DNA from: Azolla caroliniana
Lineage: Eukaryota > Plantae > Polypodiophyta
Length of the DNA stretch: 64,000 nucleotides
Assembly (NCBI GenBank): GCA_043228905.1
Contig: JBHGNT010000117.1
Span: 1 to 64,000 of the forward strand
Reading direction: 5' to 3'
The position numbers were made by a program, and so were the translations under genes. Every line of letters starts with the position of its first letter. Within the stretch, counting starts at the first letter, position 1. The notes below the pieces were generated by a model. The model searched no databases and was not told where the DNA came from. It worked only from the letters and a program-made list of their open reading frames with translations. This document shows positions 9,880 to 40,238 of this stretch, in pieces.

Positions 9880-10665
9880 TTAGAAGCGACGAATACAAGC
9901 ACGAGGGCGAAGATCGCACTGTTGGAGTAGGCGGGAGGCGGCGACGCCTAGAGCTCTTTCCTCGTCATCGGCCTTGAATTGGCGACGTTGTTGACGTTCG
10001 TCCTCTTGTCGTCGAGACATGCGGTGGTGGCGTTCGTCACCCTCTCGTCGCTCACGGCTGCTATCTCTCTCGCGCTCCTCGTCCTCTTCCTCCCAGCTAC
10101 GGTGTTCCCTTGATTGTTGGCCATGGCGTCGGCCTTCATCATTGCGTCGTTCCTCCTCGTCAGCATACAAGGCATCACGTAGGCGATCGCATCGATCATC
10201 GGCGGGGATTCGTTCGACGTTCCTGCAGCACCGTTCCGAGGGTCTTGAGTATCGAGTGTTTTCGATCCATGGGGAGCGACGTCCTTGTTCACCTTCCTCT
10301 CTTTCGGAGCGCTCTTGTAGCTCTCGGATCTGCTTGTCGATGAAATCACCGCACTCTCGCCTCAGTTCCTCGTCACGTGGCTCATCGCGACCACGGCTAC
10401 GACGTTCCCTTTCCTCTTCGGAGTCTCTCTTGTTGTCTCTGTAGCGGCGCCCCTCCTCAAGGAACCCCTCACGACGTCGCTCGCGCCTCTCGTCATCGCA
10501 CTCCCCCTCTCGGCGTCGATCGCGCCTCTCCTCGTCAATGTCTCCCTCACGACGTCGATCGCGTCGCTCCTCTTCACGGTCCCGCCCTACAGACTTAGCA
10601 TTGGCTGCGGTACACGCGGCGAGCATGATCACGGCCATGAGGAATACGGAAGTAAGCTTTGCCAT
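9880..10665 (-). CDS. Arg/Glu-rich 2S albumin-like (prolamin superfamily) storage protein precursor, 261 aa, intronless
   Basis: Signal peptide. Cys skeleton ECGDFI...PSERCC...DRC...QQC..AC; PSERCC resembles conifer 2S albumins. About 66 Arg by manual count. Sibling copies carry an RY/G-box promoter. Confidence 0.85.
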   Translation of the reverse strand: MAKLTSVFLMAVIMLAACTAANAKSVGRDREEERRDRRREGDIDEERRDRRREGECDDERRERRREGFLEEGRRYRDNKRDSEEERERRSRGRDEPRDEELRRECGDFIDKQIRELQERSEREEGEQGRRSPWIENTRYSRPSERCCRNVERIPADDRCDRLRDALYADEEERRNDEGRRHGQQSREHRSWEEEDEERERDSSRERREGDERHHRMSRRQEDERQQRRQFKADDEERALGVAASRLLQQCDLRPRACIRRF

Positions 10666-11211
10666 TGGGGTCGAAGCACGCTACGGTGTACCAAAAAAGT
10701 ACTCTTTTTGGGCACAAAAATTGTCAGTACTTTCAATACTGTTAGTGCTGAATAATTCAGAAAAAAAATTAGAGAAAAAGAAAATCGATTTTGGAGAGTG
10801 GGGTGACTGTAGTACAAGTGTCATTTACTGTAGAAGGAGTGGGGGGAACACCTGAGGAGATGTTCTTCCATTTTGGGGGCTATTTTCCCCTCACGTCGAT
10901 TTTGGCGCTTCCCCTCACGTCGTTTTGGCGATTCCCCTCATACTGTTCTTCCTCTATCTCTCTGAGCTTTTCATCACAAACATCCATGTCACGTTTCTGA
11001 TTTTCCTTCAATCTAAATCTCAGACATCCATGTCTGGTTGGAGAGTTTGAGTTGAGGATTTCTGATTTTTTTAGGGTTTCTGTTTTTGTTAGGTTTCGGT
11101 TGAGGTACAGAGACTATTCTAAAGGTTTAGGTAGCAGCCAATAGTCACTTCTTTGACAACGACTTTCGTACTTCCACCGATTGCAGTTGATGTCGTGGTG
11201 ATTTGGGGCTT

Positions 11212-12006
11212 TTTCCACCAAATCGAGGCGGCATTGGAGGTTCCTTCCACCAAATCGAGGCGGCATATCCAACGCTCCCTCCACCATTGGAGGTTCCTTC
11301 CACCAAATCGAGGCTGCATATCCACGCTCCCTCCACCATTGGAGGTTCCTTCCACCAAATCGAGGCGGCATATCCAACGCTCCCTCCACCATTGGAGGTT
11401 CCTTCCATCCATTTTTTTATTTTCAGTACTAAAATGTTTCATTTCTTCATATTTCAGTACTAAATTTTTAGAATTGACATTTGCCATATTTGATATGTAA
11501 TTCTAATGTTTGAAACAAAATATTTCTCACTTTGCAGGCCACATTTAAAAACATTTGATTGTGTTTTCTTGGTTGAGTCTATATATCCACGCTCCCTCCA
11601 CCATTGGAGGTTCCTTCCATCCATTTTTTTATTTTCAGTACTAAAATGTTTCATTTCTTCATATTTCAGTACTAAATTTTTAGAATTGACATTTGTCATA
11701 TTTGATATGTAATTCTAATGTTTGAAACAAAATATTTCTCACTTTGCAGGCCACATTTAAAAACATTTGATTGTGTTTTCTTGGTTGAGTCTATATATCC
11801 ACGCTCCCTCCACCATTGGAGGTTCCTTCCATCCATTTTTTTATTTTCAGTACTAAAATGTTTCATTTCTTCATATTTCAGTACTAAATTTTTAGAATTG
11901 ACATTTGTCATATTTGATATGTAATTCTAATGTTTGAAACAAAATATTTCTCACTTTGCAGGCCACATTTAAAAACATTTGATTGTGTTTTCTTGGTTGA
12001 GTCTAT
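11212..12006 (+). repeat. About 53-bp tandem repeats followed by three 212-bp tandem repeats in the transposase leader
   Basis: TTCCACCAAATCGAGGCGGCA repeated; identical blocks offset by 212 bp (11506 and 11718). Confidence 0.9.
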
Positions 12007-12063
12007 AGAACATTAACTACTTTCGCAAGACACTTAATTTTTGTGGATAAATCTAGTGACCGA

Positions 12064-15000
12064 ATGGGGGTTCCTAACGAGAGTGAGTTGTCAAGTAACT
12101 CATGCATATCTGAAAGGACTAAGAGACGAGTGGTTCTTCACATAGTTCATTATTTGGTAGAAATAACGAAGAGATTTAGTGAAGAGGATCGTAGGGATAT
12201 TATTTGTAGAGTGTTACACCATCAAAGTTTGAATGAAGACATGGAGAGAATAAAATTTAGGGACCAATGTGTTTCAGAAGAGATTGTGGAGTCTATGAAG
12301 TCATCCCTAGACTTAGTGAAAGGTGTAGAGAGCTTAGACAAACTTGCTACAAAGAGGGCAGCCCTACACATGGTTGTGAACGGTGCGAGAGAAAAAAAAT
12401 ATAGTGATACTAAAGTTGCCTTAGCCCTGGGTATTCAAAGAAGGAACTTGAGGAAACATCGCCGAAATATACACTCAAGCAAATTCAAGTGGCTGGGGTC
12501 GGGACGTAGACGACGATGTGATGCCTTATCTCAAGAGATTATTGAGAAAGTGGATTCATTTTGGGCCAAAAATACGCGTGTCTCACCAAATAAGAAGGAC
12601 GTGTGTAGACAACGAATAAGTCAGGGTAAGTACCAGATTCACCCTAGACACTTCTTGGAGATGACAGAGGTATTCCATTTTTTTATATCAATTCACATTC
12701 CATAACTTTGTGTTTTGACCAAGTGTATATTAATGTTTGCTATATATATTGGTTGATGTAGGCTGAATTGTACATGAACTTTAAAGACCAACATCCAAGC
12801 TTGACTGTCGGATTCCGCAAGTTCCAAGGTTTGAAACCATTTTATGTTAGAAAATTAAATGAGAGGAATACATGTTGTTGTGTGTACCATGTGAAGATGG
12901 ACATGTTAAGGCTAGCAGTGAATGCAATGCGTACTGATTCTAAGGGTATACATGGGGAATTATGTGTCTGCACTTGTGAGATTTGTAGACCAAATGGGGA
13001 GGATAATAGGTGTAATGCACGAAACAGGACTTATGCATCCGTTTCTGAGCTATGGAGGTCTTGTGTTTGTGAAAAAGAACCATCATGTGAGTGGCATCGT
13101 CGTACATGTCTATAAAGAACATGTAAGGTTCGTCCGCTACCATTATTTTGTAGGCAGGAGCTTGATATGGGAAATAGTCATATCGTGAAATGGAAATATT
13201 TGGAGTATGTGACTGAAAATATTGGCAAGGGAGTTGTAACTAAGCGTATCAAGGAAGTATATAAGGAGACATGTGCTGCTACCCTTGTCTCAGAATTTAA
13301 GAAACAACTTGGGGAGTTTATTCCACATAACTTCCGGAGTTATTGGCAAAATTCACAGTTCAAGGAATGTATTAATAACTTACCAACGGGTGTCATTGTA
13401 TCCGTTATTGATTTTGCAGAAAACTATACATTTAAAGTTCAAAATGAGGTTCAATCAATGCATTGGTACAATGATCAATGTACAATACTTGTACATATTT
13501 GCTATTGGAGGCAAGACGGTGAGTTACATAAGAAATCAATATTTTACATTTCAGATGATAAAAAGCATGATACACTATTTGTTCAACATTGTTTTAAGCT
13601 TCACCATGCAGATTTATTTTCTCTAGGGTTAACCTTTAACCGTCATTGGGTTTGGTCTGATGGTGCTGCCTCGCAGTTTAAGGCGGCACGATCGTTCTAC
13701 TTTATCGCCAGGTAATTTTTAATCCATATGTTTAATACTTATCATGCAATGTGTAAGGAAGTAAATCTTGTGTTAGTGGATGCATACTAATTATGTTTCT
13801 AACTATTAACAAACAGTACTAGTCACATCGATGCATACTAATTATGTTTCTAACTATTCGAATCTTGCACTTGTGAATGGATGCATGCATACTAATTTTG
13901 TTTGTATTATGTTGTACTAAGTAACTTTTAATCCATGTGAAGTGTTCTCCATAGACACATTGTACTATGTTGTGTTTACAGAAGGATGTAAAGTACTCAT
14001 CTTGTACTCATAGTATTGTCCGTCCTTAAGAGAATTGTACTAATGATCTTTTTATCCATGTGAAGTGTTCTCCATAGACACATTGTACTATGTTGTGTTT
14101 ACAAAAGGATGTAAAGTACTCATCTTGTACTTAGAGTATTGTCCGTCCTTAAGAGAATTGTACTAATTATGTTTTAATCCATGTGAAGGGTTCTCCATAT
14201 ACACATTGTACTATGTTGTGTGTTGGTTTTGTACTATGTTGGGTTTACAAAAGGATGTAAAGTACTCATCTTGTACTCATAGTATTGTCCATCCTTAAGA
14301 GAATTATACTAAGTATCGATTAATCCATGTGAAGGGTTCTCCATAGACACATTGTACTATGTTGTGTGTTGGTTTTGTACTATGTTGTGTTTACAAAAGG
14401 ATGTAAAGTACTCATCTTGTACTTATAGTATTGTCCGTCCTTAAGAGAATTGTACTAATTATGTTTTAATCCATGTGAAGGGTTCTCCATATACACATTG
14501 TACTATGTTGTGTGTTGTATCTGTACTATGTTGTGTTTACAAAAGGATGTAAAGTACTCATCTTGTACTTATAGTATTGTTCGTCCTTAAGAGAATTGTA
14601 CTAAGTATCGATTAATCCATGTGAAGGGTTCTCCATAGACACATTGTACTATGTTGTGTGTTGGTTTTGTACTATGTTGTGTTTACAAAAGGATGCAGCC
14701 CTACTCATCTTGTACTTATAGTATTGTCCGTCCTTAAGAGAATTGTATTAATTATGTTTTAATCCATGTGAAGGGTTCTCCATAGACACATTGTACTATG
14801 TTGTGTGTTGGTTCTGTACTATGTTGTGTTTACAAAAGGATGTAAAGTACTCATCTTGTACTTATAGTATTGTCCGTCCTTAAGAGAATTGTACTAATTA
14901 TGTTTTAATCCATGTGAAGGGTTCTCCATAGACACATTGTACTATGTTGTGTGTTGGTTTTGTACTATGTTGTGTTTACAAAAGGATGTAAAGTACTCAT

Positions 15001-16258
15001 CTTGTACTTATAGTATTGTCCGTCCTTAAGAGAATTGTACTAATTATGTTTTAATCCATGTGAAGGGTTCTCCATAGACACATTGTACTATGTTGTGTTT
15101 ACAAAAGGATGTAAAGTACTCATCTTGTACTTATAGTATTGTCCTTCCTTAAGAGAATTGTACTAATTATGTTTTAATCCATGTGAAGGGTTCTCCATAG
15201 ACACATTGTACTATGTTGTGTGTTGTATCTGTACTATGTTGTGTTTACAGGAGGATATAAAGTACTCATCTTGTACTCATAGTATTGTCCGTCCTTAAGA
15301 GAATTGTACTAAATCAGTATTTACTCATGTTGTACTCATAGTATTGTACTCATCTTGTACTCACCAAAGCAGGTATTTCTCCTTATTCAATATTCGTATG
15401 CAATGGAATTACTTCGGGTCTGGACATGGAAAAGGAGAGCATGATGGCGCGGGGGCTGTGATCAAACGTGCCCTTACAAGTGAGCAGTTGGATAGTAATG
15501 GCGCTAAGTTACAAAATGCACATGATGTTGTGCAGTGGCTAACATGGAAGATGTCAAATGATGGTAAGAACAGATTGTTTGTTGAAGTTCGCGTTGATGA
15601 GGTCGATAGAACTAAATCATATGGTTGTAAAACCGTGAAAGGCACATGCAGCACCCATTGTGTGTTAGGGTTTAGCCGCAAGGACACAACCCAATTGTTA
15701 CTCCGTAGTTTATCATGCTTTTGTTCCATGTGTCTAGATGAAGCTTGGGATAAATGCATCAACCTATCAATCGTGGAGCCCTGGAAGCTGCAGAAGCTTG
15801 AGCCTGAACGACAAGATGATATTGAAGAGGATGTGCATTCAAACGATATTGTATACTACAACCAAAATCAAGACTTGGCAGTTTTATTGGAAGTTGGAGA
15901 TCATTTTGCAGTGCTCAAATATTCTCAGAATGAAGATTTAGAAGACTACTACATTGTGGTGTGCAAGCAAGGAAAGACATTATTGAAAGAAGTGGTGAGG
16001 GATGGTTGGGGCAACAATTTCAACGTTGGTGAGTCTGTCGTGTATGGAAACTATTATGCAAAGTTGCCGCAGTGCAAGAACACATATGCATTACTAAAAG
16101 AAGCACCCATCGCAATAATCTACGCTGATGCCATTCTTGCGATCAAATTCAATATGACTCAAGCAAAGCACAAGGTTAAGGGATACAACACTGTCTACAA
16201 GGTCCCCCAAGAGGTTCATGAGCACATATTAGGGGAGGTCTCTCTATTTAATGCTTGA
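12064..16258 (+). pseudogene. Sola2-like DDE transposase A (exons 12064-12669, 12762-13711, 15373-16258), one in-frame TAA
   Basis: DFAENY..QSMHW, WSDGAASQFK, GHGKGEHDGAG, CCCVYH and SCFC motifs. GT-AG introns keep the frame. TAA at 13113-13115. Family call is from recalled motifs. Confidence 0.8.
13931..15320. repeat. Intronic tandem array, about 10 units of 123 or 146 bp, GTACT-rich
   Basis: ATCCATGTGAAG recurs at about 13931, 14054, 14177, 14323, 14469, 14615, 14762, 14908, 15054 and 15177. Confidence 0.92.
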
Positions 16259-16403
16259 AAGTCACCCTATCAATACATTGTACTAGAAAACTGAAAAACA
16301 TCCACTTGGAGTTCACTATTAATTTTGATGATTGACAAATGAATTGATATATTTCGTCTTTCTTCCAAAGGGTTTATGCCTCTCAACCACTTGTACTTAT
16401 CTT

Positions 16404-19205
16404 TCATAATATATTAGTTGTTGTCAACAGGACTTGGATTTCTTCATTGCCGATATTGCTCATGTTTCCTGATATTATTTGAGCATAGGAGTTTTGCAGA
16501 GTTGGTGTGTCCTCTGTTGGCACATAAATCTGCTCTTCTTTTGCTACCAAGAGAAGATTGTTAGTTGAATTCATTAAAGACTTTAATATTGTAAGATTTT
16601 CTACTGTAAGTTCATTTTTCAAAGGGGGCGATGAATTCTGTGAAGACAACAATGAAAATTATTCTCTCAGAATCCTTTTTTGTTTCATGATATGTCCTGT
16701 GAAGCCATCTGAGTTTTTACTTCTTGTATATAAGTCCTGAATATCCAGGCTATAGATTTTAAAGTATAGACCTTCCTTTCCTTAACAAAATAATCCAACT
16801 TCTGAAACAATAATTTGTGATAGCTCAAAAAGGTAAGTGTTTCCTTACTACTGTTAGTGGATGATTCATCCTTTGGGATGATATCATCAAAATATGGCCC
16901 ACATTGCTTCAACAATTTGCACACATTCTGGTTACCGTCCAAATGGGATTGATGAAATAGTCTATACTTCAGTATATCTTCAATAACACCCGATACCCGA
17001 TATTTTCTGTTTCTCATCATCAACACCTAAAAACCTAAATTTTCCTAGCAAGCTAAGAAGACTTTCAAGCATTTTATCTACAATAGACTGAAAGACTTTG
17101 CGAGGATTAGGAGATGATCTCAAAAAAGAAACAAAACATTGTAAAATAAGAATACTTAGATCAAAAAGTATATTCCCATTGTTTTTGATATATGTTGATG
17201 AGCAAAATATAGAAGCAATCCTTAAACATGAACTTGATTTCACACTGGTATAACTATTTCAGATTCATGAACTGGATTTTTTACATTGGCAATTGAAACA
17301 GTATTTTGGTATCCAAATAGCTCAATTTCAGACATCACTAACAACTAAAGTTCAAGTACAATCGAAAGACAATCAGGCACTAGAGGGTAACTTGGCCGAT
17401 CTTGTAATGCGCTTGTTGTTGGTGCCAGATTTTTCTAATTTTACATTCTTCTTTATCTTAAAGCCTTTAGGTATGAGCTGACTAAGTGGCACTTCATCAT
17501 CAGAGGCATCAGAGACAGGCGTGGATGCGCGGGCACCTTGTACTAGTGGCAAGCTTGAGAGAGCAACTATGTTTTCTGCAACTGCAATGCTTGTACACAA
17601 ATCCACAAAGGTGCTGTCGATAGACAAATTATCACTCATCTCCTGAATGCTTGTACTCCTAGCGATCTTTATTGCCCTATCATCATCACCGATGCCTATA
17701 CACTCGTTCTTATTAGACTCCTGTATGTGGACCGTGGTAGTAGTCATGGTCAACTCCTCTTGTACGATGGATGTCACCTCATTCTTAAGACAACGTTGTT
17801 CGCTCTGAGTACAATCAAGCCCACCTTCATTAGTAACGTTGTTCGCTCTACACTCCTCATGGGATTCTGTACAATCAGGCTTATCTTCAGGGAAAGCGAT
17901 GTTCTTTCCACGATCCTCATGGGCTTCACAAGACACTACTAGCACATTCTCAGTACAATCAAGCTCCTCTTCATTACTAGCAATGTTCTTTCCATGATCC
18001 TCATGGGAATCTTTAGATAGTACTAGCACATTATCAGTACAATCAGTCTTCTCTTCAGCACTTGCCACATTATCAGTACAATCAGTCTTCTCTTCAGTAC
18101 TTGCCATATTCTTTCCACACTCTTCATGGGCTTCAATCTTCTCTTCAGTACTTGCCATATTCTTTCCACACTCATAGGCTTCTTTAGACATAGTGTTGTT
18201 TGTACATGCCAGCTGCTCTTCACATATGAATGCTTCGTTTTTCTCACAATCCTCATGTGTGGAAGATGTGCTTCCAGAGTCTGCCTCCTTGCAAAGGTTA
18301 ATTTGATTCTGACTCTGATGGGAATCTGATTCTGCACTTGTGCTCCATGAAGTTCCCGATTCATTTGATTGCAGTTGGGAATCAGACTGCTCTTGTAAAC
18401 CTAATTAATGGGATTCCAAAGAATATTGGTATGAACTCACATACTCAAAAGTTTGCAAACAATGAACATAGGGTTTAGGGCCACATTTTTACCTAATGTT
18501 ACATCGTCATACTGTACAGCCGTAGATACCCCATTGCAAGTGGTGGGCTCGGTCATCTTCTCCACAACATCTAGGTGCTCAACAGTGTTGTTATGATCTA
18601 TAATAACAACAAAAATAGAGTTGTTATGAGCTAAATCATTGTTTTCAAAGTCTGGCTTTTGACGTGTACCTGGGAGTGTGATAAATTCGTCTTCATGATC
18701 AGGTTTTGGACTCGTATCTCCGTCACCAAATATCATTTCATCATCAGCTAGTAACACAAGTACATGGTATTAGACAATGGATTAGGTTGACAATGCTCCA
18801 GACAGGTGAGAACTTATATGACTCACCATTGCATTCAACTTTGCCTTTCTTGCCGTTTCCATACAACATTCTTGCAGCATTTCTCTTCTTACTGGGCTCT
18901 ATTTGTAAAGAAACTGCATTTCTCTTCTTAGTGGGCTCTATTTCTTGATGTTGACCGGAGCTTGGGGAATTTGTTTGTAGAAGCATATGTTCCACTGCTC
19001 CAATGGCCCTTCTCATACATTCATCCTCATCATAAAAATCATAGGTTATTGGTAATGATGGTCCTTGAACCTTGGAATGTGCAGCAGATATTGAGGGTTT
19101 AGGCACAGGGGCTGGTTGTTCCATTACCTTCCCTGGCGTGGAGTTGCTTGACACTACAACATTCATTGCAAGAAACAAAAAAACCTTGAATGTTAGTACC
19201 ATCAT
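16404..19205 (-). pseudogene. Accessory gene of transposon A, acidic repeat protein of unknown function (fragmented, probably multi-exon)
   Basis: Chain of minus-strand ORFs with EECGKNMASTEEK-type repeats and basic KKR motifs; exon boundaries uncertain. Confidence 0.5.
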
Positions 19206-19249
19206 CTAAAATATATAATGTAGGTCACAAGAGCTGCTTCCCATTTTAC

Positions 19250-19740
19250 ACAATGTACCAGTCATGAACAATGTACTACTCACATAGTTCCTAAATTACT
19301 GAACTAGTACTAACAAGGAACACTGTACTGCTCACTTAGTTCCCAATTTACACGATTAGTACTAATCATGCACAATATACACAAGTAGTACTAATCATGC
19401 ACAATATACTACTCACTTAGTTACCAAATTACACAAGTACTAATCCCGAAAAATGTACCACTGACTTAGTCAAATTAATAAGTAGTACTAATCTTGAACA
19501 ATGTACTACTCACTTATTTCCTAAATCACTGAACTAGTACTAATCCCGAACAATGTACTGCTCACTTAGTTCCCAATTTACACAAGTAGTACTAATCATG
19601 CACAATATACTACTCACTTAGTTACCAAATTACACAAGGAGTACTAATCCCGAACAACGTAATGCTCACTTAGTTCCCAATTTACACAAGTAGTACTAAT
19701 CATGCACAATATACTACTCACTTAGTTAGCAAATTACACA
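19250..19740. repeat. Degenerate AGTACT-rich tandem repeats (about 59 bp)
   Basis: CTCACTTAGTT..AATTACAC..AGTAGTACTAATC recurs. Confidence 0.85.
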
Positions 19741-22700
19741 CTCTGTTGACCAGTTGCAGGTCTTGAATGAAGCGCAACGTCCCGTTCTTCTTTGGTACGG
19801 TAAACCACCGGTTCGAGTACGGGGCACTCGACGGTTCGAGGATGCCCATATCGACTTTCTGCCTCAACAGCTCCATCAGCTTTGGGATGTGAGCTCTCGG
19901 TACCGGGATTGGTTTGAGATTCCACGACACATGCGGTACCGTGAATAGCACCATCAGCTTCACGACTGTCGGGTCTACGTAGCCGATCTCTTCCGGTGAG
20001 AATGCGAAGGCTTTCCCGTGCCTTCCGAGCATTCTCCGAAACCGGTCTTCTTCCGCCGGCAGTAGGAACCCGCCCCCACCGATTTTGAGCTCCCATAGCG
20101 TTCTGTCGGTGAAGGTGTGTCCTATGCAGGCCGGATCTCGTAAACTGGGGTCCGACGCGACCCCCTTGATTCGCAACTCGCTGCCCTCCGGTAAGGGTGT
20201 CGCGACTGGCCTTACCTTCCGTTCCACAGTCTTGTACTTCGTGTTAACCCGGGCCGTTCGATCCGACTCGAGCCCTCGACTGAAGTCCGCGATGACTTCG
20301 TACATCTCTTCTGAACAAACCGGTATCGTCCGGTCCTCTTTAAGGCCCTCTCCGAGCACCTCTCGTAGTATTCCCAAGGTATTGTCGAAGGAGACCGCCT
20401 CTACAGCTCCGTTGATTTCCTTGTTGGGCCCGAGAACTCCGCACGCCCGAAGTCACTCTTCCGCCCTTGTCTTTTCTTGGCCAACGACGCCAATTATCGT
20501 ACACCCTCCGTTGTCGGAGAAACAAAACTTCCTACTTATGGTACCAGGTTTCTTCGGTTTCGCCTCTATCGTACATTTGTGGGGTTTTCCCGGAGTGTCC
20601 GGACTATCGCGGCCCCACGCCTTGACAGCCCTCTCTAAAAATCCTCTCGGTTCTCGCCACCGAGGGACTCGCGGTTTCGCTCGTGGTTCAGTCGCACCGT
20701 CAGGAACTGGACCGAATGACGCCCGTCCTGACTCTTGACCCTTGCATAAGCTGACCCTTTGTCTAGCACCTTGGTCTCCATCCGTGCTGCTGTAATGTAC
20801 GGTTCTCCCAGTATGACCGGGTGCGAGGATGTCTCCTGCACAAAGAAGTGCTGGTCTATCTCGACGTCGCTGATCTTGACTCGCACATTTGGGCAGGCCC
20901 CGTGTAGTTCCTCGGTGGTGCGCATCGCCGCCCGTATCTTCCACCCGTGCTTGGTGTTGATCGGCCATTTCCCCTTCTTGTAGAAGTCCATGGACATCAG
21001 GTTTATTTCTGAACCATGGTCCACCAGCGCCACCACCGGTTCCTGAACATCTCCGATCTTCACCGGGGTTTCCTGGTCGCTCGGGCCCAGTGTGACCTCG
21101 AATAGTGGCTCTCCGCCCACTCATCTTCCAGCGCCATGTCCTCTATGTGCGTCGTCCGCACCTCCACCGGCCTTTCCGGTTCTATCTCCGTCGACAGCCT
21201 CTTCCTCTTCACCAAGTCTACGATGGAGTCATGGAACTCCTTCTTGGCTATTCCGAGCACCTCATGCAACGACAGTTCCACCTTGCTGTCGAGGATTCGT
21301 TCTTCCAGGACCTTTTGTAGGTCCGTGGTCCTTTCGATCTCCGTGCCCAACCAGTATCCGCCCTTCTTGTGGTTATCCCGGGCACTGGTCTCACCGGCCT
21401 CGTTCTGTTTCGGCCCGAATCGGGTTTCGTATCTCTGTGAGGGTCCGGCCCCTCCGCTTTTACCTACCCTTTTGTCTTCAACCAGAGCCTCGTAATTCTG
21501 GCAAGCTGCTTCGACGAAACCCGTCTTTTCTTTGACCGGGTCACTCCACCCGGTTACCTCCTGGACCCGCTTCTCCGCGCCGTCCGCCTCGTCTTTCCTT
21601 AGTCGGGCACCGGCAAGGCCTTCCAGCATCGTCGGCCAGAACCCGGCTTTGCTCTCCTTCCGGGCCTCGTTGCCTCCGACCCGAATACCGGTTGACGCCG
21701 AGTAGTGGACGGTCTCCGCGTGTCGGGCCGCCGCCTCTTCCATCAGCCTTTACATTCCTCCTCGCCCATCGTTTCGGTTCAGGGCCCTCCGGGTATCGCT
21801 GGCATGCACCCGACCTTCCCACAGGTACACTACCCAGCTTCTCAAGGCCTCCGCAAAGTCCCCGCAATCTTTCCGGATGTGGCCGACCTCGTCGCACCAC
21901 ATGCACCTATTTCCTGCCGGAGGCCGTCGGTCACGAGCCTGTTCGCCGCATTCCCTCCGAGCCTGGGCGATCTGGAGATCCTTTACCGCCCGTGTCAACT
22001 CCTCCGGACGAGTTGTTCCCCCGGACGAGCCTCTGACCACGCCGGTCGAAGCCGAACCGGTTTCGAGCCACTCCCAGGTCTCTTCCCTTCGTGCCTGTGG
22101 TATCGGTTCGAGCTTCCTTGCTGCGACAGGACCCGCCTTGGTCGCCCCTGTATCAACCCACTCCCACCGTTTGTCAAAATGGCCGCAAACTCTTTTTACC
22201 GCGGCCCAGTCGGCCGTCAGCCCGTCTTCGGTTTCCAGTAAGGAGCCCACTTGCTCCCAATCCCGTGCGTCAACCGATTTGACAAACAGTAGGACACGAC
22301 TTGTGTCTAGAACGGTCCGATCGAGCGCCGAAAGGCCCGCAAAGCGTTCCTCAAACTCTTGGAGGAGTACCGACGCATTTCTTCCTTTGTTGGGGGACTC
22401 CACCCACTCCATGAAGCCCCGCTTCGAAAGCTGAAGCGCGTCATCCAGCCCGTATTTCTCCAGGAGCTGTACTTCGAACTCTTCCCAGGTTCGGCTCTCC
22501 GCCCGGACCTCGAGCACCTCCGCATGGATGCCCGGCATCACCACTCGAGGGAATCCGGCAAGACACCTCTCTTCGGGAATATCCCTCATCAACATCTCCG
22601 CCCGGTAGGACGCCAAATAACTCGTGGCATCCTTTCCACTGAACCGGCCGATCGTACCGACGATCACCTCAATAGCCCTGTCAAGGGCGTCGGTGCCCTC

Positions 22701-23030
22701 GCGCGCGCTCACTATCCGGTCCACGACCGAAGCCATGGCCTCTGCAAGATCCGACCCGCTCATCTTCTGCTCCTCTACCGCCTTATTCACATCGGGTTCA
22801 CCAAAGATGTCGCGTTACTACGCGCGTGCGTGGAGAAACGAGGCGGGACCACCGGGGTCTTGAACCAAAGAGCAGGTGATAGAAGGGGAAAGAGAAAGAG
22901 AGAGACGCTTGGTTACGTATGAGCAAAGAAACACAGGGACACGGCCCTGTCAACACAGAAGACACGGCCCTGTCAACACAGAAGACACGAATGGACACAG
23001 AGACAGAGAGGGGTAAAAACATGCGAGTGG
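19741..23030 (-). mobile_element. Truncated Ty3/Gypsy element with tRNA-Trp PBS (partial 5' LTR, gag, protease, RT N-terminus)
   Basis: ATTCACATCGGGTTCACCA at 22785-22803; LTR end at 22808; CMWCDEVGHIRKDC; LVDHGSEINLM; GILEPSSAPYSNRWFTVPKK..RFIQDL. Confidence 0.88.
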
Positions 23031-23564
23031 AAACACTATTATAGCTAATTAGCTACTAAAATGGCCATAGCTAATTAGCTATTTGTTTAGCTAGTCTTTT
23101 TTGTGGGAAAATCAAATATTTGAAAAACTAATTTATGAAAAAAGTCAAATATTTGAACTTTTGTTTCAGACATAGTGGAACTTGGGGAATTGCACCATCA
23201 TCTAAGGTCGACTTCAATGTCATCAATTTCCTGTTTAGCCTAAGTCTGATTTTGAACGCGGATGGAGTACTCAGAGCACGAACGCAGACGTAGCTCCCAC
23301 AACAGCAGAAAATTGACATTGTAGATTGAGAGCTACAACACAGAACCCGCTCGATCATCGTCCAGGTATGTTTCAGTTACAGAAACCCCAAACATTTGTT
23401 TTTTCTTTTTTACTACTGTCTGAACTTTGGTGCTGATTCATATTTCCCCAAAATCGAATAGGGCGAAGTCCTTGGAGTCCCATACAAGGATGTCTCGCAA
23501 ATCGGGGAGTAGCAACAGGTGTGTTTATATTACTTTTTTTGTGTTTAATCCTGTCTTTAGTGAT

Positions 23565-24035
23565 GATTGGGGTTTTTGATTGAAATTTCTGATTAGGGTT
23601 TTTGTTTATAAATTTCTGATTAGAATTTCTTATTAGGGTTTGTGATTGAAAGTTCTGATTAGGGTTTCTGATTGAAATTTCTGATTAGGGTTTTTGATTC
23701 TAAATTTCTGATTAGAATTTATGAATAGGGTTTCTGGTTACAAATTTTGATTATAGATTAGAATTTCTGAATAGGGTTTTTGTTTCTAAATTTCTATTTA
23801 GGATTTCTGATTAGGGTTTGTGATTGAAATTTTTTATTAGGGTTTCTAATTGAAATTTCTGATTAGGGTTTTTGATTATAAATTTCTGATTAGAAATTCT
23901 GAATAAGGTTTTTGGTTACAAACTTCTGATTACAGATTTTGATTAGGGTTTCTGATTTCAAACTTCTGATTACAGATTTTGATTAGGGTTTCTGATTTCA
24001 AATTTCTGAATACAAATTATGATTAGGGTTTCTGA
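23565..24035. repeat. Intronic telo-box (TTAGGGTTT) array
   Basis: Ten exact TTAGGGTTT plus variants, alternating with AAATTTCTGA, in intron 23519-24143. Confidence 0.85.
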
Positions 24036-25479
24036 TTTGCTAAGTTAAAGATTTTGCACCATTTTTGTTGTTGTTGATTGGGGTTTCTGATTCTCATATA
24101 TTCTGATTTTGCACTATTTCTGATTTCTGAAATGATATTTCAGATGGCTCGTTCCTCCGTATACGAGAGTGCTAAACTTCGCAAAATTTTGCGAGACAAA
24201 GGAGGACTTCCACAACACCTATGGTCTGTCACTCGAGGGTGTTGACCCTGATGTCCTAAGTGATAAATTGATCAGTGATGTAGACTGGATGATAGTATAT
24301 ACAGTGCCTAGAGTCAAAGGCAAGGTCAAGCTGAAGCATGTACGAGCCGACTTGTACGATGACTGCATGAGACTGCACCAAAAAGCTCATCAGGAGATCC
24401 CAGTCAACAATGAGTTGTTAGTTTCATTTGCTAGAGCATTTGCATATGAGTACTGCAAAACAGCGAAGGAATCCAGAGACCCTGAAATGTATAGGGTAGC
24501 TTGGGCAGTCTATGGTGAGGCATCGGTAAAAAGATGCCGAAAGATGGGGACCTTGGCACAAAAAATAGACAGATTTTGGAGCATGGCAGCTGTTGATGCA
24601 ACTGTCGACTCCCAGCAAGACCGGGGGCATACACCACATCGACACCCAAGGAAAGCCAATGTCGATGATACAGGTGAGACATTGGTTAGCTATATGCTAA
24701 AAAATGTCCATGAAGCCTGTGAGACATTGGCATTTTTTAAGACTGATTTAGAGAAAGCGACAATGGCTTCTGCAATGGAGAGCAAAGTTACTTCCGTTGT
24801 TACAACAATTAGAAATAAGATTCAGGTAACTATTGTTTTGCTGGTATGTGATTGTGTTATAAATAACGGGTAAAATGTGCTAATCAAGCATTATCTGGAA
24901 TAGGTTGCGCAACAGGAGCTTGAATTAGAGGGGCCACTGGATCCCTAGCGTAAAATAGAACTGCAAATAGAGATCCAGGTTCTTTCAATGAACCTGGACC
25001 TTCTAGGTGTAAATACTGTTGCAGGTTACAATTTAGATAAGCTTCAAGTAAGTTAACAATTCCTGAGCAAAGTTGGTGTATCTTTCAACAACAAGAATAA
25101 TTAATCGGTAAATTTCTCTATTGCGTTGAAGGAACAATACATTCATCAAGAACAGGTAGTTAGCTGCCTTAAGAAGCAGCTACATTTTGTGGAGGGAATG
25201 GTAAGGACCAGACAGGATTTGGACCTGAACATTCTTGCTCCCTTACCAAATGAAGTAGAACCAGAAAATGATTTATTGACAGTTCAAGCATGTTGCATCG
25301 CTTGCGGGTTAGGTGTGGAGGACAAAACTGCGTCTTTGTTGGTTCACCTACAACCATGCAACCACACATACCATCTGCTTTGTTTTCAACATGCCTGTCG
25401 AATTGCTGCATTCTGTTTGGGAGATTGTAGTACAGCTCTACCAAATGAGTGGAGAAAACTAACAGGTATACCATACTGT

Positions 25480-26335
25480 AGCTAATAAGCTTAGTCTTTT
25501 CTAATTAGCTATCCTACTAGCTAATTAGCTATTCTAGTAGCTAATTAGCTATGGTACTAGCTAATTAGCTAGTACCATAGTTGTGTAAAAAAGCTAATTA
25601 GCTATCCTACTAGCTAATTAGCCACTGGCAACTAATTAGCTATCCTAGTAACTAATTAGCTACTGCCATAGTTGTGTAAAGTAGATAATAAGCTATCATA
25701 GTAGCTAATTAGCTACTAGCAGCTAATTAGCTATCCTAGTAGCTAATTAGCTAGTACCATAGTTGTGTAAAAAAGCTAATTAGCTACTGGCAACTAATTA
25801 GCTATCCTAGTAGCTAATTAGCTACTGGCAACTAATTAGCTATCCTAGTAGCTAATTAGCTACTGGCAACTAATTAGCTATCCTACTAGCTAATTAGCTA
25901 TCATAGTAGCTAATTAGCTACTGCCATAGCTGTGTAAAGTAGCTAATAAGCTATCCTAGTAGCTAATTAGCTACTGGCAGCTAATTAGCTATCCTAGTAG
26001 CTAATAAGCTATCCTAGCTACTACATAGTTGAGAAAGTAGCTAATTAGTTTTCATTGTAGCTAATTAGCTATCCTACTAGCTAATTAGCTATCCTAGCTA
26101 CTACCATAGTTAGTAAAGTAGCTAATTAGGTATCCTAGCTACTACCATAGTTAGTAAAGTAGCTAATTGGCTATCCTAGCTACTACCATAGTTGAGTAAA
26201 GTAGCTAATTAGCTATCCTAGCTACTACCATAGTTGAGTAAAGTAGCTAATTAGCTATCGTACTAGCTAATTAGCTATCCTAGCTTCTACCATAGTTTAG
26301 TAAAGTAGCTAATTAGCTATCCTAAATAGCTGCCA
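25480..26335. repeat. Intronic TAGCTAATTAGCTA palindrome array
   Basis: Dozens of copies filling intron 25466-26346. Confidence 0.92.
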
Positions 26336-27052
26336 TGTTATTGTAGAATCTTGTGGATTAAGGACGGCACATGATGTGTCTGGTGCTGATGACGCTGCAA
26401 CAGATGAGGATACTACTGCCAACGTGGCTAAAAGTAAGAGTCCTGCTATCACATCTCCTTCAGATCAGCTCCACCCTATTCTCTTGGAACAGTGTACTGA
26501 ATTAGGCAACGATGTGAAATGCCATGAAATAGTGGAAAAAACATGTAAAACTGAGGTTCACAACAACAGTGTTTATGAACACTTGATGCAACATTTCTTC
26601 GAGTCTCAAGACCTTGATTCCACCCCACCGAGCCCAACTACTGAAAATGTCCAAACAGACCCCTCTGTACTTGAAAAGCTAGTTCAAGAAATGACTAATG
26701 TGCAATTAGCTGCTGAGGCGATGGGAAGGTTGTCAGAGGAGGACACACTTGCGCATTGGGTGAAAGAAGCAAGGCTAAATGGGGAACCAACCAGAAAAAG
26801 GTTGAAGAAGGGGCCACGATCGGGAACAAGACCAGATACTCGATCAAGGGTCCCAGACGTAGTGGAGCGAAATACTGTTTAGTTGGATATGATTGTTAGC
26901 TTAGGGATTTTTCTAGGGTTTTATGAAGTTTTACTATCCTGTTGGACAAGTAAAACCTCAGATTGGTTGTTGCTTGATCCACATTATGTAATGGAACTCT
27001 ATGATGTTTTTCCAAGATAATTTGAAGAGTGTTGTTCTATGATTGAAACTCT

Positions 27053-28147
27053 TTGATGTTCAGGATATTGTTTTGTGAGACTATTAGTTACTTTGTGAGT
27101 GTGAATATGTTGGTGTTTTCTGATGTTGCAGAGTCTAAAGGGTTTGATTCTATTGCTCGTAAGGCCAATGGTAGTGTGGATACTGTTGATATTGCGGCAT
27201 GTTTAAAGGGCCCCATCTTGAAAGTAGATGTAGCAACTGACACAAGTGATCTGGTCACACAAGTTGATCAAGCATGTAGCACGGATGACTTGGTGTTGCA
27301 GGTAGATGCAGCATGTAGCACGGATGACTTGGTGTTGCAGGTAGATGCAGCATGTGATACCAGTGGACTGATATCGAGCAGATCAATAGCTACATGCACC
27401 GAGGTAATCCAAGGATTGATAACTAAGTCGACAAAACAAGAGCACCAGAATGTGAAGCCAGGCCCAACACAGTCAACTAGGGGTTTGAAGAGGAAAAGGA
27501 CGCCAGTTGTGTCGGCCGAACCTGAGCTGATTGAGATTGATCGTATCCTACCAGAAAATGGTGTAACAGCGGCTCAGTTTCAGGAATGGAAACCAAAACC
27601 ACTAGAAGTCGAAAGAAGAGCCTTGATCTTGGAGCTTGATAAAGTCTTGATGAGTGTGAGATATATGCAGCCAAGGAGGAACGCGAATCAGTTTCTAGAG
27701 TGGGCTGTGGAATACTTTGATTTGTTTATTTGGAGTGAAAAACCAAAATCAGATGTGTGGAAGTGTTTGGCAAGATTCTTCCCAAAATGGCGAAGTCGTT
27801 TTAAAGGTCAATGGGCACGAGAAAATTGTGAGCAAATGGAAGCTGCAAGATTCAAGAGACTTTCTGATTTTTGGGCTACTTGGCCTGAATATAATGCCGA
27901 CAATACATTGATTTTGGATACAGAACATTTCCGGCACTACTTCAATATTCGGAGATGCTGTCTCATTCTACCCGAGGAAATGCCTGAACAGTACCTGGTG
28001 CAAATAGTGAGCTGCCAACTAGGTGCATGGTTGTGGACTCCATACCGAGCTCGATATGCAGATGATATATGTAGACTCGTTCCACTGACTAGCAAGAGCT
28101 TAGATGTTTATAGGAGATTTGTAGACATTTCCAATGGTAATTTATAA
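27053..28147 (+). CDS. FCP1/NIF-like (HAD phosphatase) domain protein with degenerate catalytic motif; start uncertain, may be a terminal exon
   Basis: LILELDKVL, RRNANQFLEWAVEYFDLFIWS and YNADNTLILD follow the FCP1-homology motif order. Possible splice acceptor at 27131. Confidence 0.6.
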   Translation: MMFRILFCETISYFVSVNMLVFSDVAESKGFDSIARKANGSVDTVDIAACLKGPILKVDVATDTSDLVTQVDQACSTDDLVLQVDAACSTDDLVLQVDAACDTSGLISSRSIATCTEVIQGLITKSTKQEHQNVKPGPTQSTRGLKRKRTPVVSAEPELIEIDRILPENGVTAAQFQEWKPKPLEVERRALILELDKVLMSVRYMQPRRNANQFLEWAVEYFDLFIWSEKPKSDVWKCLARFFPKWRSRFKGQWARENCEQMEAARFKRLSDFWATWPEYNADNTLILDTEHFRHYFNIRRCCLILPEEMPEQYLVQIVSCQLGAWLWTPYRARYADDICRLVPLTSKSLDVYRRFVDISNGNL

Positions 28148-28494
28148 ATATGTAAAGAGATGACATTATTCAATGAAGAATTTAATTACTTGTTCCCACT
28201 GTACTTATCTATTGTGTAATTTGAGGAATATGTTGCAGATTGTTGATTTCATGCTATTGATGACTATTTAGCTATTGACAGCTAATTAGCTGCATTTGTA
28301 CAGCTAATTAGCTACTGATGACTATTTTGCTATAACTTATAACTTAAAACTTAACAAAAAAGACATGATTTTATTGAGAAAGAAGCACAGAAAGCAGACT
28401 GTATACAAGAAATTGATTCCAAACGAATTTATTTAACTGTTTTCGCGAAATACATGTTTGTTTTACAAGAGAACATGGTAAGTGCTACTTGTAG

Positions 28495-30355
28495 CTACAA
28501 ATTCCATGGCATACTATTGTAAATACATTCATACACATTAGCACCAATAGTGTATAAACCGGAGCAGCTATTGTATTCTGACATTGGGACGTTGATGCAC
28601 CTGACCAAATGAGAGTACATATACGCCGCTGGTTTGTCTTCTAACAGCCTCTACACATATTCGTAGTCATCTAGTTTTGCATAAAAAATGCCTTCGATGT
28701 AGAATGTCCCGACAGATACAAAATTTCCCCATGCATCTACAATATTCTGCCTTGCACACTGTTTACTAACCGTGCACTTTAATATATAGAAATCAACACC
28801 CTCTGAATTGCCTTCTTCAGCATTTACAGCGAAGTTCAGGACATCACTCAAAGTATCCCCAACGTTCAGGACATCACTCAAAGTATCTCCAAGTCCCTCA
28901 TATGTGAAGTCAGCATTCTGCCCTGTTTCTTCATCAACTGCTTCCTTATCATTCAGAGTGTGATACTCCCAATTCTGAATGTATGCTTTGTTTAGACAAT
29001 ATCTCCAATTTCCCTGCACACAATGGAAGCAAAAACAAGTCAATTCTCTAACCGCAATACAATGACCATCCAACCTGGAATAACTGCGAACAGCATGCAG
29101 AGATCGCAATTCGGGAATTCCTTGGCACTCCCAGGTCTTCTCCCTATTTACTTCATCTATCTTCACTTCCCAAAATTCACGTTTGATATCTCGGACTTGC
29201 GAGGAATAAACACCTGTGGCACTCGTTGACATATTTGTTCTTAAAAATTCAACTACATGTGATGCACAATTCATGTGCACACCATCTATCTTTAGTTGTT
29301 CATGGGTAAGTGCCCGCTTTATAATAGCCCCTGCACCATCATGTTCACCTTTACCATGGCCAAGACCCAAAAAAATTCCAGCTCATCTCCAAACCTGTTA
29401 TAGCAGGATATCTCCCCACAAAATAAAATGGACGTCGAGCCTTGAATTGTGACGCAGCTCCGTCAGACCAGACCCAATGTTGAGTAAGCTCCAAACGTTG
29501 AGCTAATAACCACTGCCAATGTAACTTAAAACAGTGTTGGACGAACAAGGTATCATGCTTCTTATCATCGGAAATAAAGAAATGAATTACTTTTTTAACA
29601 TCACCTGAAACTCGAAAATATGTTATGTGCACAAAAATGGTTACCTGAACTGAACACCAATGCATAGATTGAATTTCATTCTGCTGCTTGAAAGTATAAT
29701 TCTCTGCGAAATCTACTGCTGAGACTACTACATCATTTGGGAAATCAGATATGCAAGTCTTAAACTGATGGGCCTGCCATGAATAAATGAAGTTGTGTTT
29801 AATGAACTTTCCTAGAGATACTACAAACAGAGACACCAAATCCCTTGGTTTAAGCATCTTCTGAACTAGATCCTTTCTTTTACACACCTTTCCTTCGAAA
29901 TTGGTGTTCACTGACTCAAATAACTTCACAGAGATCAATATTTCACTACTCAATTCATTTGGACACCACCTAAATCTAGTAGGGCCACAATCTTGACATA
30001 AACCCATGACACATTTATGAATATGGAAGATAGCGTCAGTTTCTCTCGGACACAATATTGAATCTAATAAATAACTCATGGAAGAGATAACGTGCTCAGA
30101 TGATTTACAATCCTCTTGCGGGCTTGATCAACAGATTGGGCACCCACATGTGCAAACTGTATTAGTTAGGGATGCGCTATGGTGACGTAGTAGATTAACA
30201 GAGTCCTTCAGAAAACCCATCTGTACATGGTAAATGCAACAACATGTGTATCGATCCTTTAAGCATCTCACAAAGTGTGGCTTAAGAGACTCGAATGTTC
30301 GTAGTTGAACTTTGATAGTTGGATGCATTCGTTTGAACCTAATAAATAAATCGAC
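28495..30355 (-). pseudogene. Sola2-like DDE transposase B with stops and a frameshift; N-terminal coding exon absent
   Basis: DFAENY..QSMHW, WSDGAASQFK, GHGKGEHDGAG. TGA at 30128, frameshift near 29365, TAG at 28651. Acceptor at 30356 is equivalent to the first intron of transposase A. Confidence 0.8.
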
Positions 30356-30384
30356 CTGCGTAATAAAGGGGAATTAGTTATTCT

Positions 30385-31310
30385 CGTAACTAGCTAACTA
30401 TCCTAGTAGCTAATTATCATGGTAGCTAATTAGCTGTCCTAGTAGCTAATTAGCTATCATGGTAGCTAATTAGCGGGTCTAGTAGCTAATTAGCTATCAT
30501 GGTGGCTAATTAGCTTTCCTAGTAACTAATTAGCTATCATGGTAGCTAATTAGCTGGTCTAGTAGCTAATTAGCTATCATGGTAGCTAATTAGCGGGTCT
30601 AGTAGCTAATTAGCTATCATGGTGGCTAATTAGCTGTCCTAGTAACTAATTAGCTATCATGGTAGCTAATTAGCTGGTCTAGTAGCTAATTAGCTATCAT
30701 GGTAGCTAATTAGCTGGTCTAGTAGCTAATTAGCTATAATGGTGGCTAATTAGCTGTCCTAACTAATTAGCTATCATGGTAGCAAATTAGCTGGTCTAGT
30801 AGTTAATTAGCTATCATGGTGGCTAATTAGCTATCCTAGTAAGCTAATTAGCTATATGGTAGCTAATTAGCTTTCCTAGTAGTTAATTAGCTGGTAATAA
30901 CGAAATAGCAAACTAGCTACCATGATAGCTAACTAGCTACCAGTACAGCTAATTATCTGGTAGTACCTAAATTAGCTATTGAGAATAGCTAATTAGCTAT
31001 CATGGTAGTAGCTATTGAGAGTAGCCAGTTACCTATGTAGTAGCTATCATAGTAGCTAATTAGCTATCATGGTAGCTAATTAGCTTTCCTAGTAGCTAAT
31101 TAGCTGGTAATAACGAAATAGCTAACTAGCTACCAGTACAGCTAATTATCTGGTAGTACCTAAATTAGCTATTGAGAATAGCTAATTAGCTATCATGGTA
31201 GTAGCTATTGAGAGTAGCCAGTTACCTATGTAGTAGATATCCTAGTAGCTAACTGAGGTAAATGTAACTGATAAGCTAATTAGCTTTTCTGCTAACTCAG
31301 CTAATTAACT
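30385..31310. repeat. Intronic TAGCTAATTAGCTA palindrome array (about 20-bp period)
   Basis: Lies between the donor near 31353 and the acceptor at 30356 on the minus strand. Confidence 0.92.
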
Positions 31311-32068
31311 TTTCGAGTAGAGTCAAAACAAATGTTGAGATAAATGTAAATACCTGAGGTACATCAAGAAGATGAATGGGATGCTCCTCGTATTGATTTC
31401 TTCCAACACGAATGTTTGTATATTAATGAATGACAAATAAACAACAGAGCACGTGAGCGGTTACAACCGAACAGGCCGGCGAACAGATGCCGATGCCTGC
31501 TCGTCTGCGCACGAAAGGAGATAGGATGGAGGTGCTGCCGGAAGCACACGGGCATTCCTCGAAGCAGCGCGAGCCTCCCGAAAACCTGCAGAGAAGAGCG
31601 ATGGAGAATGAATAGAGGAGAAGCGTTCGGTTTCGGTCCGACAACACTTCGTCCTCCTCAATAAATAAAAATGTCCCCCTTCTCCCCGCGTCTCCGTCTC
31701 TTTTATAGCTTCAAGAAGGGAGCCGTTTCCCTCATTAACTTCCTACCTACCGAATCTAACTACCTAGGATATACCTTTGTACCTAATTCTCTATTATATA
31801 CATTAAAGGGCGCGCACGCGTGAAGAGCCGGTTCACGCGTGCTATGCACCGATTATGCTAAGGGACGGTTTTCTTCACGACAGCGGTCCCTATAGGCAAA
31901 TTCTATACATTGGTGCTCGTGTTTATGTTCGTGTTGGAGGGACGTTGGTGCTCGTGTTTACATTCGTCTGGGTGTAATGCGCGATTGGGGAGACGCACTT
32001 GTTCGTAAACACTTACGAGAAATTAAAGAGAGACCACGAGAATAATTTGAACAAGGTTTATGCACTAT

Positions 32069-32694
32069 TTAGAAGCGACGAATACAAGCACGAGGGCGAA
32101 GATCGCAATGTTGGAGTAGGCGGGAGGCGGTGACACCTAGAGCTCTTTCCTCATCATCGGCCTTGAATTGGCGACGTTGTTGACGTTCGTCCTCTTGTCG
32201 TCGAGACATGCGGTGGCGGCGTTCGTCACCCTCTCGTCGCTCACGGCTGCTATCTCTCTCGCGCTCATCATCCTCTTCCTCCCAGCTACGGTGTTCCCTT
32301 GATTGTTGGCCATGGCATCAGCCTTCATCATTGCGTCGTTCCTCCTCGTCAGAATACAAGGCATCACGTAGGCGATCGCATCGATCTTCGGCGGGGATTC
32401 GTTCGACGTTCCTGCAGCACCGTTCTGAGGGTCTTGAGTATCGAGTGTTTTCGATCCATGGGGAGCGACGTCCTTGTTCACCCCCTCTCTTTCGGAGCGC
32501 TCTTGTAGCTCTCGGATCTCCTTGTCGATGAAATCACCGCTCTCTCACCCTAGTTCCTCGTCACGTGGCTCATCGCGACCACGGCTACGACGTTCCCTTT
32601 CCTCTTCGGAGTCTCTCTTGTTGTCTCTGTAGCTGCGCCCCTCCTCAAGGAACCCCTCACGACGTCGCTCGCGCCTCTCGTCATCGCACTCCCC
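32069..32694 (-). pseudogene. 2S albumin-like copy 4, 3' part
   Basis: Homologous to copy 3; CGA>TGA at 32545 and a 1-bp deletion near 32481. Confidence 0.9.
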
Positions 32695-40205: not shown

Positions 40206-40238
40206 CGAGGAGAGGCGCGATCGATGCCGAGAGGGGGA

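Follow-up and report, generated by a model that had tools for sequence, protein, structure and literature searches.

Two related DNA transposons, here called A and B, lie in a 64,000-nucleotide stretch of the fern Azolla caroliniana (contig JBHGNT010000117.1; hereafter the window), and the non-coding DNA of each is filled with copies of a short word. Why should related transposons carry different words? An earlier note on this DNA suggested a sequence-specific anti-silencing or self-recognition system, comparable to that of the Arabidopsis VANDAL elements. Our analysis identifies A and B as truncated, dead copies of two young, high-copy lineages of Sola2-type transposons, and related lineages have further words of their own. 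The reading that we favour, at a probability of about 0.45, is by analogy: the N-terminal domain of an accessory protein encoded by the elements may read the word and act as an anti-silencer. The parts of the two elements and of the sequence around them are as follows.

10668-10694, plus strand: left terminal inverted repeat (TIR) of A, 27 bp, beginning 5'-GGG, followed by subterminal GTACT words at about +31, +59 and +77; a 4-bp target site duplication (TSD) is found in 10 of 10 full copies.
11232-12007, plus strand: leader tandem repeats of A, with 53-bp and 212-bp units, the 212-bp unit containing AGTACT twice.
12065-16258, plus strand: Sola2-type transposase gene of A, recognized by motif blocks; three exons (about 12065-12670, 12762-13711 and 15373-16258, borders inferred from GT-AG sites) with one stop in exon 2.
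13712-15372, plus strand: array in transposase intron 2 of A, 123/146-bp units, 59 GTACT/AGTAC.
16685-19205, minus strand: 3' part of the A accessory gene, with a disordered region of DCTEN-type peptide repeats encoding GTACT and a helical C-terminal part without a Pfam match.
19266-19740, minus strand: remnant of the A accessory intron array, 52/104-bp units with TAGTACTA; it lies 3' of the RING exon in full copies, and A is cut here.
19741-23010, minus strand: remnant of a long terminal repeat (LTR) retrotransposon (gag, protease, part of the reverse transcriptase, first LTR part), outside A and B.
23011-23081, plus strand: right TIR of B, 25 bp, 5'-GGG, with two subterminal TAGCTAATTAGCTA; a 4-bp TSD is found in 12 of 12 full copies.
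23300-28147, plus strand: B accessory gene, comprising an unassigned N-terminal domain (N-domain, 24142-24549), a coiled coil, a RING exon (25105-25465), a disordered part and an NIF/FCP1-like domain.
23520-24140, plus strand: B accessory intron with 12 TAGGGTT words and zero TAGCTA.
25501-26331, plus strand: B accessory intron array 3' of the RING exon, 21 GCTAATTAGC.
28253-28333, no strand: intergenic gap of B, 2 GCTAATTAGC.
28498-31410, minus strand: Sola2-type transposase gene of B; exon 2 (28498-30357) has stops and a frameshift, the last ~16 codons of exon 1 are left, and the gene is cut at 31410.
30358-31362, minus strand: array in transposase intron 1 of B, 24 GCTAATTAGC, skipped in one contig of a presumed RNA run (X1).
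31411-31882, minus strand: second half of the retrotransposon LTR into which B inserted, outside B.

The arrays described earlier in the introns and leader of A are present: against the 59 words of transposase intron 2, the three transposase exons have 1, 1 and 0. In B, the arrays reported for two introns (24 and 21 GCTAATTAGC, with 0 in exons) and the gap (2) were recovered, but the supposed upstream array amounts to two subterminal copies at 23041-23081. That the arrays stop at exon borders is true of the A transposase exons and of the B exons, but not of one A accessory exon (17376-18400), in which 12 GTACT/AGTAC lie within the peptide repeats; the reference copy of this exon has 18 against 4.2 expected. 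The A1 reference copy has 53 GTACT/AGTAC in its transposase intron against 8.2 expected from dinucleotide shuffles, and 64 against 13.1 in its accessory intron; the corresponding introns of the B1 reference copy have 39 and 49 GCTAATTAGC against 0.1 expected on the same basis.

Unrelated repeat units converge on one word. The four array types of subfamilies A1 and A2 are mutually non-alignable (no blastn match at word size 7 and E<1e-3), the two introns within each subfamily included, and all four are rich in GTACTA, the shared concentrated word being (T/A)GTACTA. The B arrays concentrate TAGCTAATTAGCTA and are partly alignable with one another. In both A and B the word is also found 25-80 bp in from either end, just inside the TIRs. 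Array length varies among copies, and word positions are more conserved than spacers in five of six alignable subfamily pairs when CG and CHG sites are excluded. The words are palindromic or, in A1, antisense to the accessory transcript. One B accessory intron (23520-24140) carries a second word type within the same element, TAGGGTT (12 copies), which we take to be telobox-like. Leaders hold other tandem repeats without the lineage word. In B these have 83-bp units and lie within the 1-1.3 kb next to the left TIR (positions 370-1080 of the L041 element); repeats lacking the word are found at the right end of A as well.

Does each lineage have its own word? Eighty metagenome loci were considered, and five further lineages were read by eye from the ten closest loci that belong to neither A nor B. 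Each lineage appears to concentrate a short word of its own near both ends and in intron repeats: GGTAATTAG in L182, ACCATTAA in L183, AGTACCAA in L184 and L185, TATGCTAGTTAGCATA in L186 and L188, and AGGTGAAA in L187. The shared outer TIR is kept, with the lineage's own word just inside it, in L182, L183 and L187 (3 of 3 where seen); the gap of L187 lacks the L187 word. The matrix of words against the seven lineages is near-diagonal, and sister rows on the transposase tree, which covers 25 rows and not the remaining loci, have common words. A held-out test asked how often the top three 6-mers of one region surpass every one of 200 shuffles in another region. They did so in 49 of 54 comparisons within a lineage and in 34 of 408 between lineages, counts that are not independent because the regions were delimited by eye and the B arrays are partly alignable. 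The between-lineage positives mostly involve words with a common TAAT or GTAC. The distant relatives L200, L201 and L204 have intron repeats with other words, and the two introns of L201 have no clear common word. The pattern as a whole needs selection on the DNA word and a reader that differs between lineages.

What kind of transposon carries these words? The genome of the window (523 Mb) was searched with one transposase exon per element. The best 150 of 988 candidate matches to the A exon are 84-100% identical to it, and the best 150 of 1042 to the B exon 95-100%. Full-length copies measure 11.5-13.1 kb for A (n=10) and 9.0-12.4 kb for B (n=12). The transposases are, as had been claimed, homologous but well diverged (27.5, 46.7 and 36.1% amino acid identity over three parts), each facing a convergent accessory gene. 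The suggestion of a superfamily other than Mutator is also borne out, since both proteins lack a Pfam match to the transposase of Mutator-like elements (MULEs) and carry all motif blocks visible in the accessible part of a published Sola2 alignment (PMC3627910, supplementary file 2), as compared by eye without a profile score: DF(A/S)ENY..Q.E.QS.HW, SDG.ASQ(F/Y)K, W.FF...HGK...DG.G...KR and the upstream Cys blocks. Sola elements have a 4-bp TSD (PMC10741241). On these sequence features A and B are Sola2-type cut-and-paste DNA transposons. Sola2 ends begin 5'-GRG. Named homologs of the transposases come from moss, liverwort, fern, yew and Klebsormidium. The lineages seen in the genome of the window are A and B only, in subfamilies A1, A1b, A2, B1, B2 and B3, the A2 transposase being 80-86% identical to that of A1; searches of this genome for other Sola2 lineages with codon patterns and a divergent query gave only B-lineage copies. 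Both transposases close with a putative beta-rich C-terminal domain (window 15900-16258 and 28500-28900) without a Pfam match.

The accessory genes of A and B are homologous (RING 39% identity, E 7e-11; N-domains alignable), and full copies of both follow one plan: an N-domain of 110-135 residues, a coiled coil, a RING exon, a long array intron, a disordered region and a C-terminal part. The largest accessory array is 3' of the RING exon in A and B alike. As judged from the ratio of nonsynonymous to synonymous substitution rates (dN/dS), which is 0.28-0.51 for A1 versus A2 and 0.15-0.52 for B1 versus B2 (3-7 copies), the gene is under purifying selection. The C-terminal part differs, being NIF/FCP1-like in B (Pfam E 1.2e-7) and without assignment in A. 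The first catalytic Asp of this B domain is replaced; since it reads DLNG or ELDK and not DLDET (L186:2767-3972, L187:5322-6104, window 27600-28147), it is likely a pseudophosphatase. The NIF/FCP1-like domain is kept in B-side lineages and absent from A. A convergent RING gene is present in three distant relatives (L200, L201 and L219) out of the 80 metagenome loci, the majority of which end before the RING would be reached; weak N-domain matches were also obtained in distant relatives (hhalign 37% and 79%). Contigs of the X1 run skip three GT-AG introns of the B accessory gene as well as B transposase intron 1, so that transcripts of a close relative of B are probably made and spliced; for A, comparison with X1 showed no clean joint across an array intron.

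A search of 1.84 billion representatives recovered 45 relatives of the N-domain, and its structure model is confident (predicted local distance difference test score, pLDDT, 93.7). A Foldseek search with this model gave no match at E<=0.001, and the best score of a second structural comparison was Z 2.6. VANC21 was not among the fold matches listed, in libraries that may lack an entry for it. A sequence search of the PDB returned coiled-coil noise only. The ESM Atlas gave no usable match for the N-domain of A, and a score of 0.88 to Transposase_28 clusters for one homolog (P0131), which is a lead only. Pfam matches to DUF1985, DUF287 or PMD were found in 0 of 44 N-domain family members and in none of the other accessory exons; PF04195 and PF10536 had no match in the genome of the window, in a search whose controls were uninformative.

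Is there silencing to escape? In 49 copies of A and 51 of B, CG and CHG sites show transitions about 10 times as often as CHH sites do. By this sequence signature the copies of A and B bear the mark of host CG/CHG methylation, and silencing therefore exists to be escaped. Protection was assessed by a mutation-based proxy, with the reciprocal intron positions of A and B as controls. A hint of local protection near the arrays in 9-42 copies was not replicated with the full set of 49 A and 51 B copies.

The mechanism that these observations suggest has several steps. A protein encoded by the element would dock at the word, most likely by way of the accessory N-domain; the accessory protein would bind cognate copies, where words are dense, and help to reactivate them against host DNA methylation, while the RING might ubiquitinate or recruit a chromatin factor. 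As the repeats expand, word and reader could change in step, and each lineage would come to have a code of its own. We infer that the word is bound, that its reader is encoded by the element and is the accessory protein, and that the effect is anti-silencing. That the reader is encoded by the element, in the accessory N-domain or the transposase, seems probable; the N-domain is favoured because its gene is old and conserved, has the same plan in all lineages, and belongs to a layout that repeats that of VANDAL.

Several observations weigh against an anti-silencing N-domain. The exon DNA adjoining the arrays is unprotected (ratios of 1.11 and 0.91 for A and of 0.86 and 0.61 for B, with p>0.25 in every case), so that by the mutation proxy there is no lasting local protection around the motifs. 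This null result removes support and is no refutation, because VANC-type loss of methylation reverts once the protein is gone (PMC10398659, as far as its available text goes). The N-domain is the accessory part most diverged between A1 and A2 (64% identity, dN/dS 0.51) though the word is unchanged. It is only mildly basic, with 17 K/R versus 14 D/E in one case and 22 versus 18 in the other, and no Pfam family was found for it in the 44 members scanned. Co-evolution of word and accessory gene was examined for A and B only, the contigs of L182-L188 being without N-domains. Further difficulties come from the distribution of the words, from their resemblance to host sites, and from their position at the ends, and these bear on the rival explanations.

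Are the words private to their elements? The claim that arrays are not shared holds between A and B, with 0 occurrences of TAGCTA in A. For B it appears to extend to the genome, where TAGCTAATTAGCTA pairs occur 3931 times as exact matches and nine of nine clusters among the matches listed (contig C1) are B-lineage elements, eight by sequence and one by position. For A it does not: TAGTACTA pairs occur 9118 times, against 134 for the reversed control, and 15 of 15 loci among the matches listed are LTRs of Ty3/gypsy retrotransposons (two pairs overlap), which are unrelated to A. These LTRs carry 2-4 word copies each, at a density of <=5 per 500 bp versus 12-19 in A, and no accessory-domain match was found in the word-carrying retrotransposon. 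A search with a tight A-array pattern gave two matches and was uninformative. The private-code reading is weaker for A because its word also clusters in LTRs, which may reflect a host site or hitch-hiking on A's reader. Occurrence of the arrays unlinked to the transposases, which according to the earlier note would speak against its proposal, is thus found in part for A, through the LTRs and the host SPL core, and, among the matches listed, not for B. The abundant Ty3/gypsy element itself (window 40238-42009; L355-L360) has LTRs of ~430 bp with 2-4 TAGTACTA at one end; elements of the same type have another small TAGTACTA cluster at the gag-pol junction, and some subfamilies have CAGTACTG at the first site.

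The rival that survives best, although we consider it unlikely, takes the arrays as amplified sites of host factors (SPL for GTAC, homeodomain/WOX proteins for TAAT, telobox binders for TAGGGTT) acting as enhancers, each lineage having fixed whatever site arose. The clustering of A's word in the LTRs of an unrelated retrotransposon favours it, but is equally explicable as hitch-hiking on A's reader. The A word contains GTAC, the core bound by host SPL, with TGTACT among the forms bound (PMC11429892, in its accessible part), and the L183 word contains TTAATGG, the site bound by WUS (PMC7203112); nearly every 6-8-mer, however, looks like some plant factor site. The telobox-like words of B's second intron array fit the host-factor explanation as well. 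It is harder to reconcile with the restriction of the B 14-mer pairs to B-lineage elements among the matches listed, and with a private word at the ends, in the introns of two genes and in the 3' gap, which is what a cognate reader predicts.

Next comes the possibility, which we also rate as unlikely and place behind the host-factor explanation, that the N-terminal helix-turn-helix of the transposase reads the word, the subterminal copies serving end recognition and the intron arrays self-activation or a sink that limits transposition. The position of the word 25-80 bp inside both ends would suit such a reader. The model of transposase exon 1 has three helices at residues 116-163, a predicted helix-turn-helix, but its matches to homeodomains are weak and below significance (Z 4.6-4.9, root mean square deviation 2-3 Å over ~50 residues). 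Exon 1 is the least conserved part of the transposase (27.5% between A and B), which counts in favour of this reading, but the predicted recognition helix is near-identical in B, L182 and L183, whose words differ, albeit with a common TAAT core. The AtMu1 transposase alone hypomethylates and activates cognate ends (10.64898/2026.08.24.746577, in the part available), but a transposase reader would leave the long-conserved accessory gene unexplained. A subterminal hairpin, ATGTC-N3-GACA(T), lies ~30-50 bp from the left end in B (L031 and others), L182, L183 and L187; it is conserved across lineages with different array words and is a candidate transposase site.

Neutral tandem expansion followed by methylation decay (CAG/CTG to TAG/CTA), leaving functionless AT-rich palindromic arrays, is disfavoured and in our judgement quite improbable. 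The strong CG/CHG decay, the existence of the un-decayed forms CAGTACTG and CAGCTAATTAGCTG, the variable array length and the partial alignability of the B arrays are in keeping with it. Left unexplained are the convergence of non-alignable units on one word per lineage, the different words of different lineages (AGGTGAAA and ACCATTAA are not decay products), and the greater conservation of words than of spacers with CG/CHG sites excluded.

Branch-point consensus sequences are CTAAT-like, and the words could in principle be RNA signals regulating the splicing of long introns, given that TACTAAT and GCTAAT contain CTAAT and that the biggest arrays are intronic, but the words also occur at both termini and in the gap, are palindromic or (in A1) antisense to the accessory transcript, and in several lineages lack CTAAT, which makes this explanation extremely improbable.

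How does an N-domain that reads the word compare with known systems? To our knowledge, Arabidopsis VANC, Spm TnpA and AtMu1 are the only cases in which sequence-specific anti-silencing has been proven. VANC21 binds a short motif arrayed in introns, intergenic DNA and terminal repeats (PMC5735166). The VANDAL analogy is sound as regards layout: as in these Arabidopsis MULEs, a dense family-specific motif occupies introns, intergenic and terminal DNA within fast-turning tandem repeats (available portions of PMC5735166 and PMC10398659), and a conserved accessory gene has variable, repeat-rich regions; the word survives turnover of the repeat unit and differs in seven lineages. It breaks down in the proteins, A and B having a Sola2 and not a Mutator transposase, a 4-bp TSD, and an unassigned domain with coiled coil and RING in place of DUF1985, DUF287 or PMD. 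Several words here, unlike those of VANDAL, are palindromic, and binding and hypomethylation are putative here. Spm TnpA and AtMu1 provide a second comparison, in that family-specific motif clusters lie near the ends (here in A, B, L182, L183 and L187), dense clusters are needed, and the reader is an accessory protein or the transposase (10.64898/2026.08.24.746577, accessible text). Their motifs are terminal, whereas most copies here are intronic, and the accessory domain is not a tandem helix-turn-helix in our model. The accessible text of that preprint (bioRxiv) contains no mention of 'Sola', 'fern' or 'moss'.

En/Spm elements have CACTA ends and a 3-bp TSD, in contrast to the GGG ends and 4-bp TSD of A and B. 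The layout of A and B is thus like that of VANDAL/VANC or Spm/TnpA, and they are members of neither. They resemble known Sola2 elements in their visible transposase motif blocks, 4-bp TSD and short TIR (PMC3627910 and PMC10741241, both in part) and differ in their length of 9-13 kb, intron-rich structure, conserved RING accessory gene and word arrays. Sola1-1_Ec32 of Ectocarpus likewise has an accessory gene on the opposite strand, for which binding and modification of the element's DNA have been proposed (PMC12477816), but it belongs to a different Sola group, and its ParB-methyltransferase accessory protein is unrelated to that of A and B, which has no methyltransferase. The literature searched, which did not extend to subscription papers and Repbase entries, yielded no account of Sola elements with RING accessory genes or with word arrays.

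A more far-reaching version, which we regard as doubtful, is that Sola2 elements of seed-free plants independently evolved VANC-like anti-silencing, with a DNA-binding domain of undescribed fold joined to a RING ligase, at least seven words, and an unrelated LTR retrotransposon hitch-hiking on A's reader by way of the palindrome. If this is true, the word-plus-reader design would be seen to have arisen more than once, now in a third superfamily, in seed-free plants and through an unrelated protein; a compact domain that is joined to a RING and whose specificity can evolve would also be a candidate tool for targeting the epigenome. With seven natural pairs of word and lineage, the specificity of a reader can be tested directly. 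Should the reader prove to be a host factor, the capture of different factor sites by one lineage after another, in intron arrays, would still deserve description.

The borders of the elements required some revision. The left border given earlier for A, 10668, is exact; A is cut at 19740, with the right ~3.5 kb gone. The end given for B, 31882, is not, since 31411-31882 is the other half of the LTR that also lies at 22700-23010, and B stops at 31410, the point at which 15 of 15 aligned genome copies of B leave the window sequence. A single LTR retrotransposon accounts for both 19741-23010 and 31411-31882, the LTR halves being contiguous in locus L079, and B (23011-31410) lies within that LTR, its left end and most of transposase exon 1 gone. 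Both transposase genes in the window are disrupted by stops or a frameshift. The nested insertions sit among tandem copies of a host gene for a small, secreted, prolamin-like protein. The gene is intronless and encodes a signal peptide and an Arg/Glu-rich prolamin-like protein that probably serves for storage in spores (PF00234, E 2.8e-4); one copy lies at 9880-10680 and others at 8236-9023, 32069-32698, 36414-37027, 47903-49181 and 54187-54644. The insertion point of A is 2 bp upstream of the predicted start codon of one prolamin-like copy.

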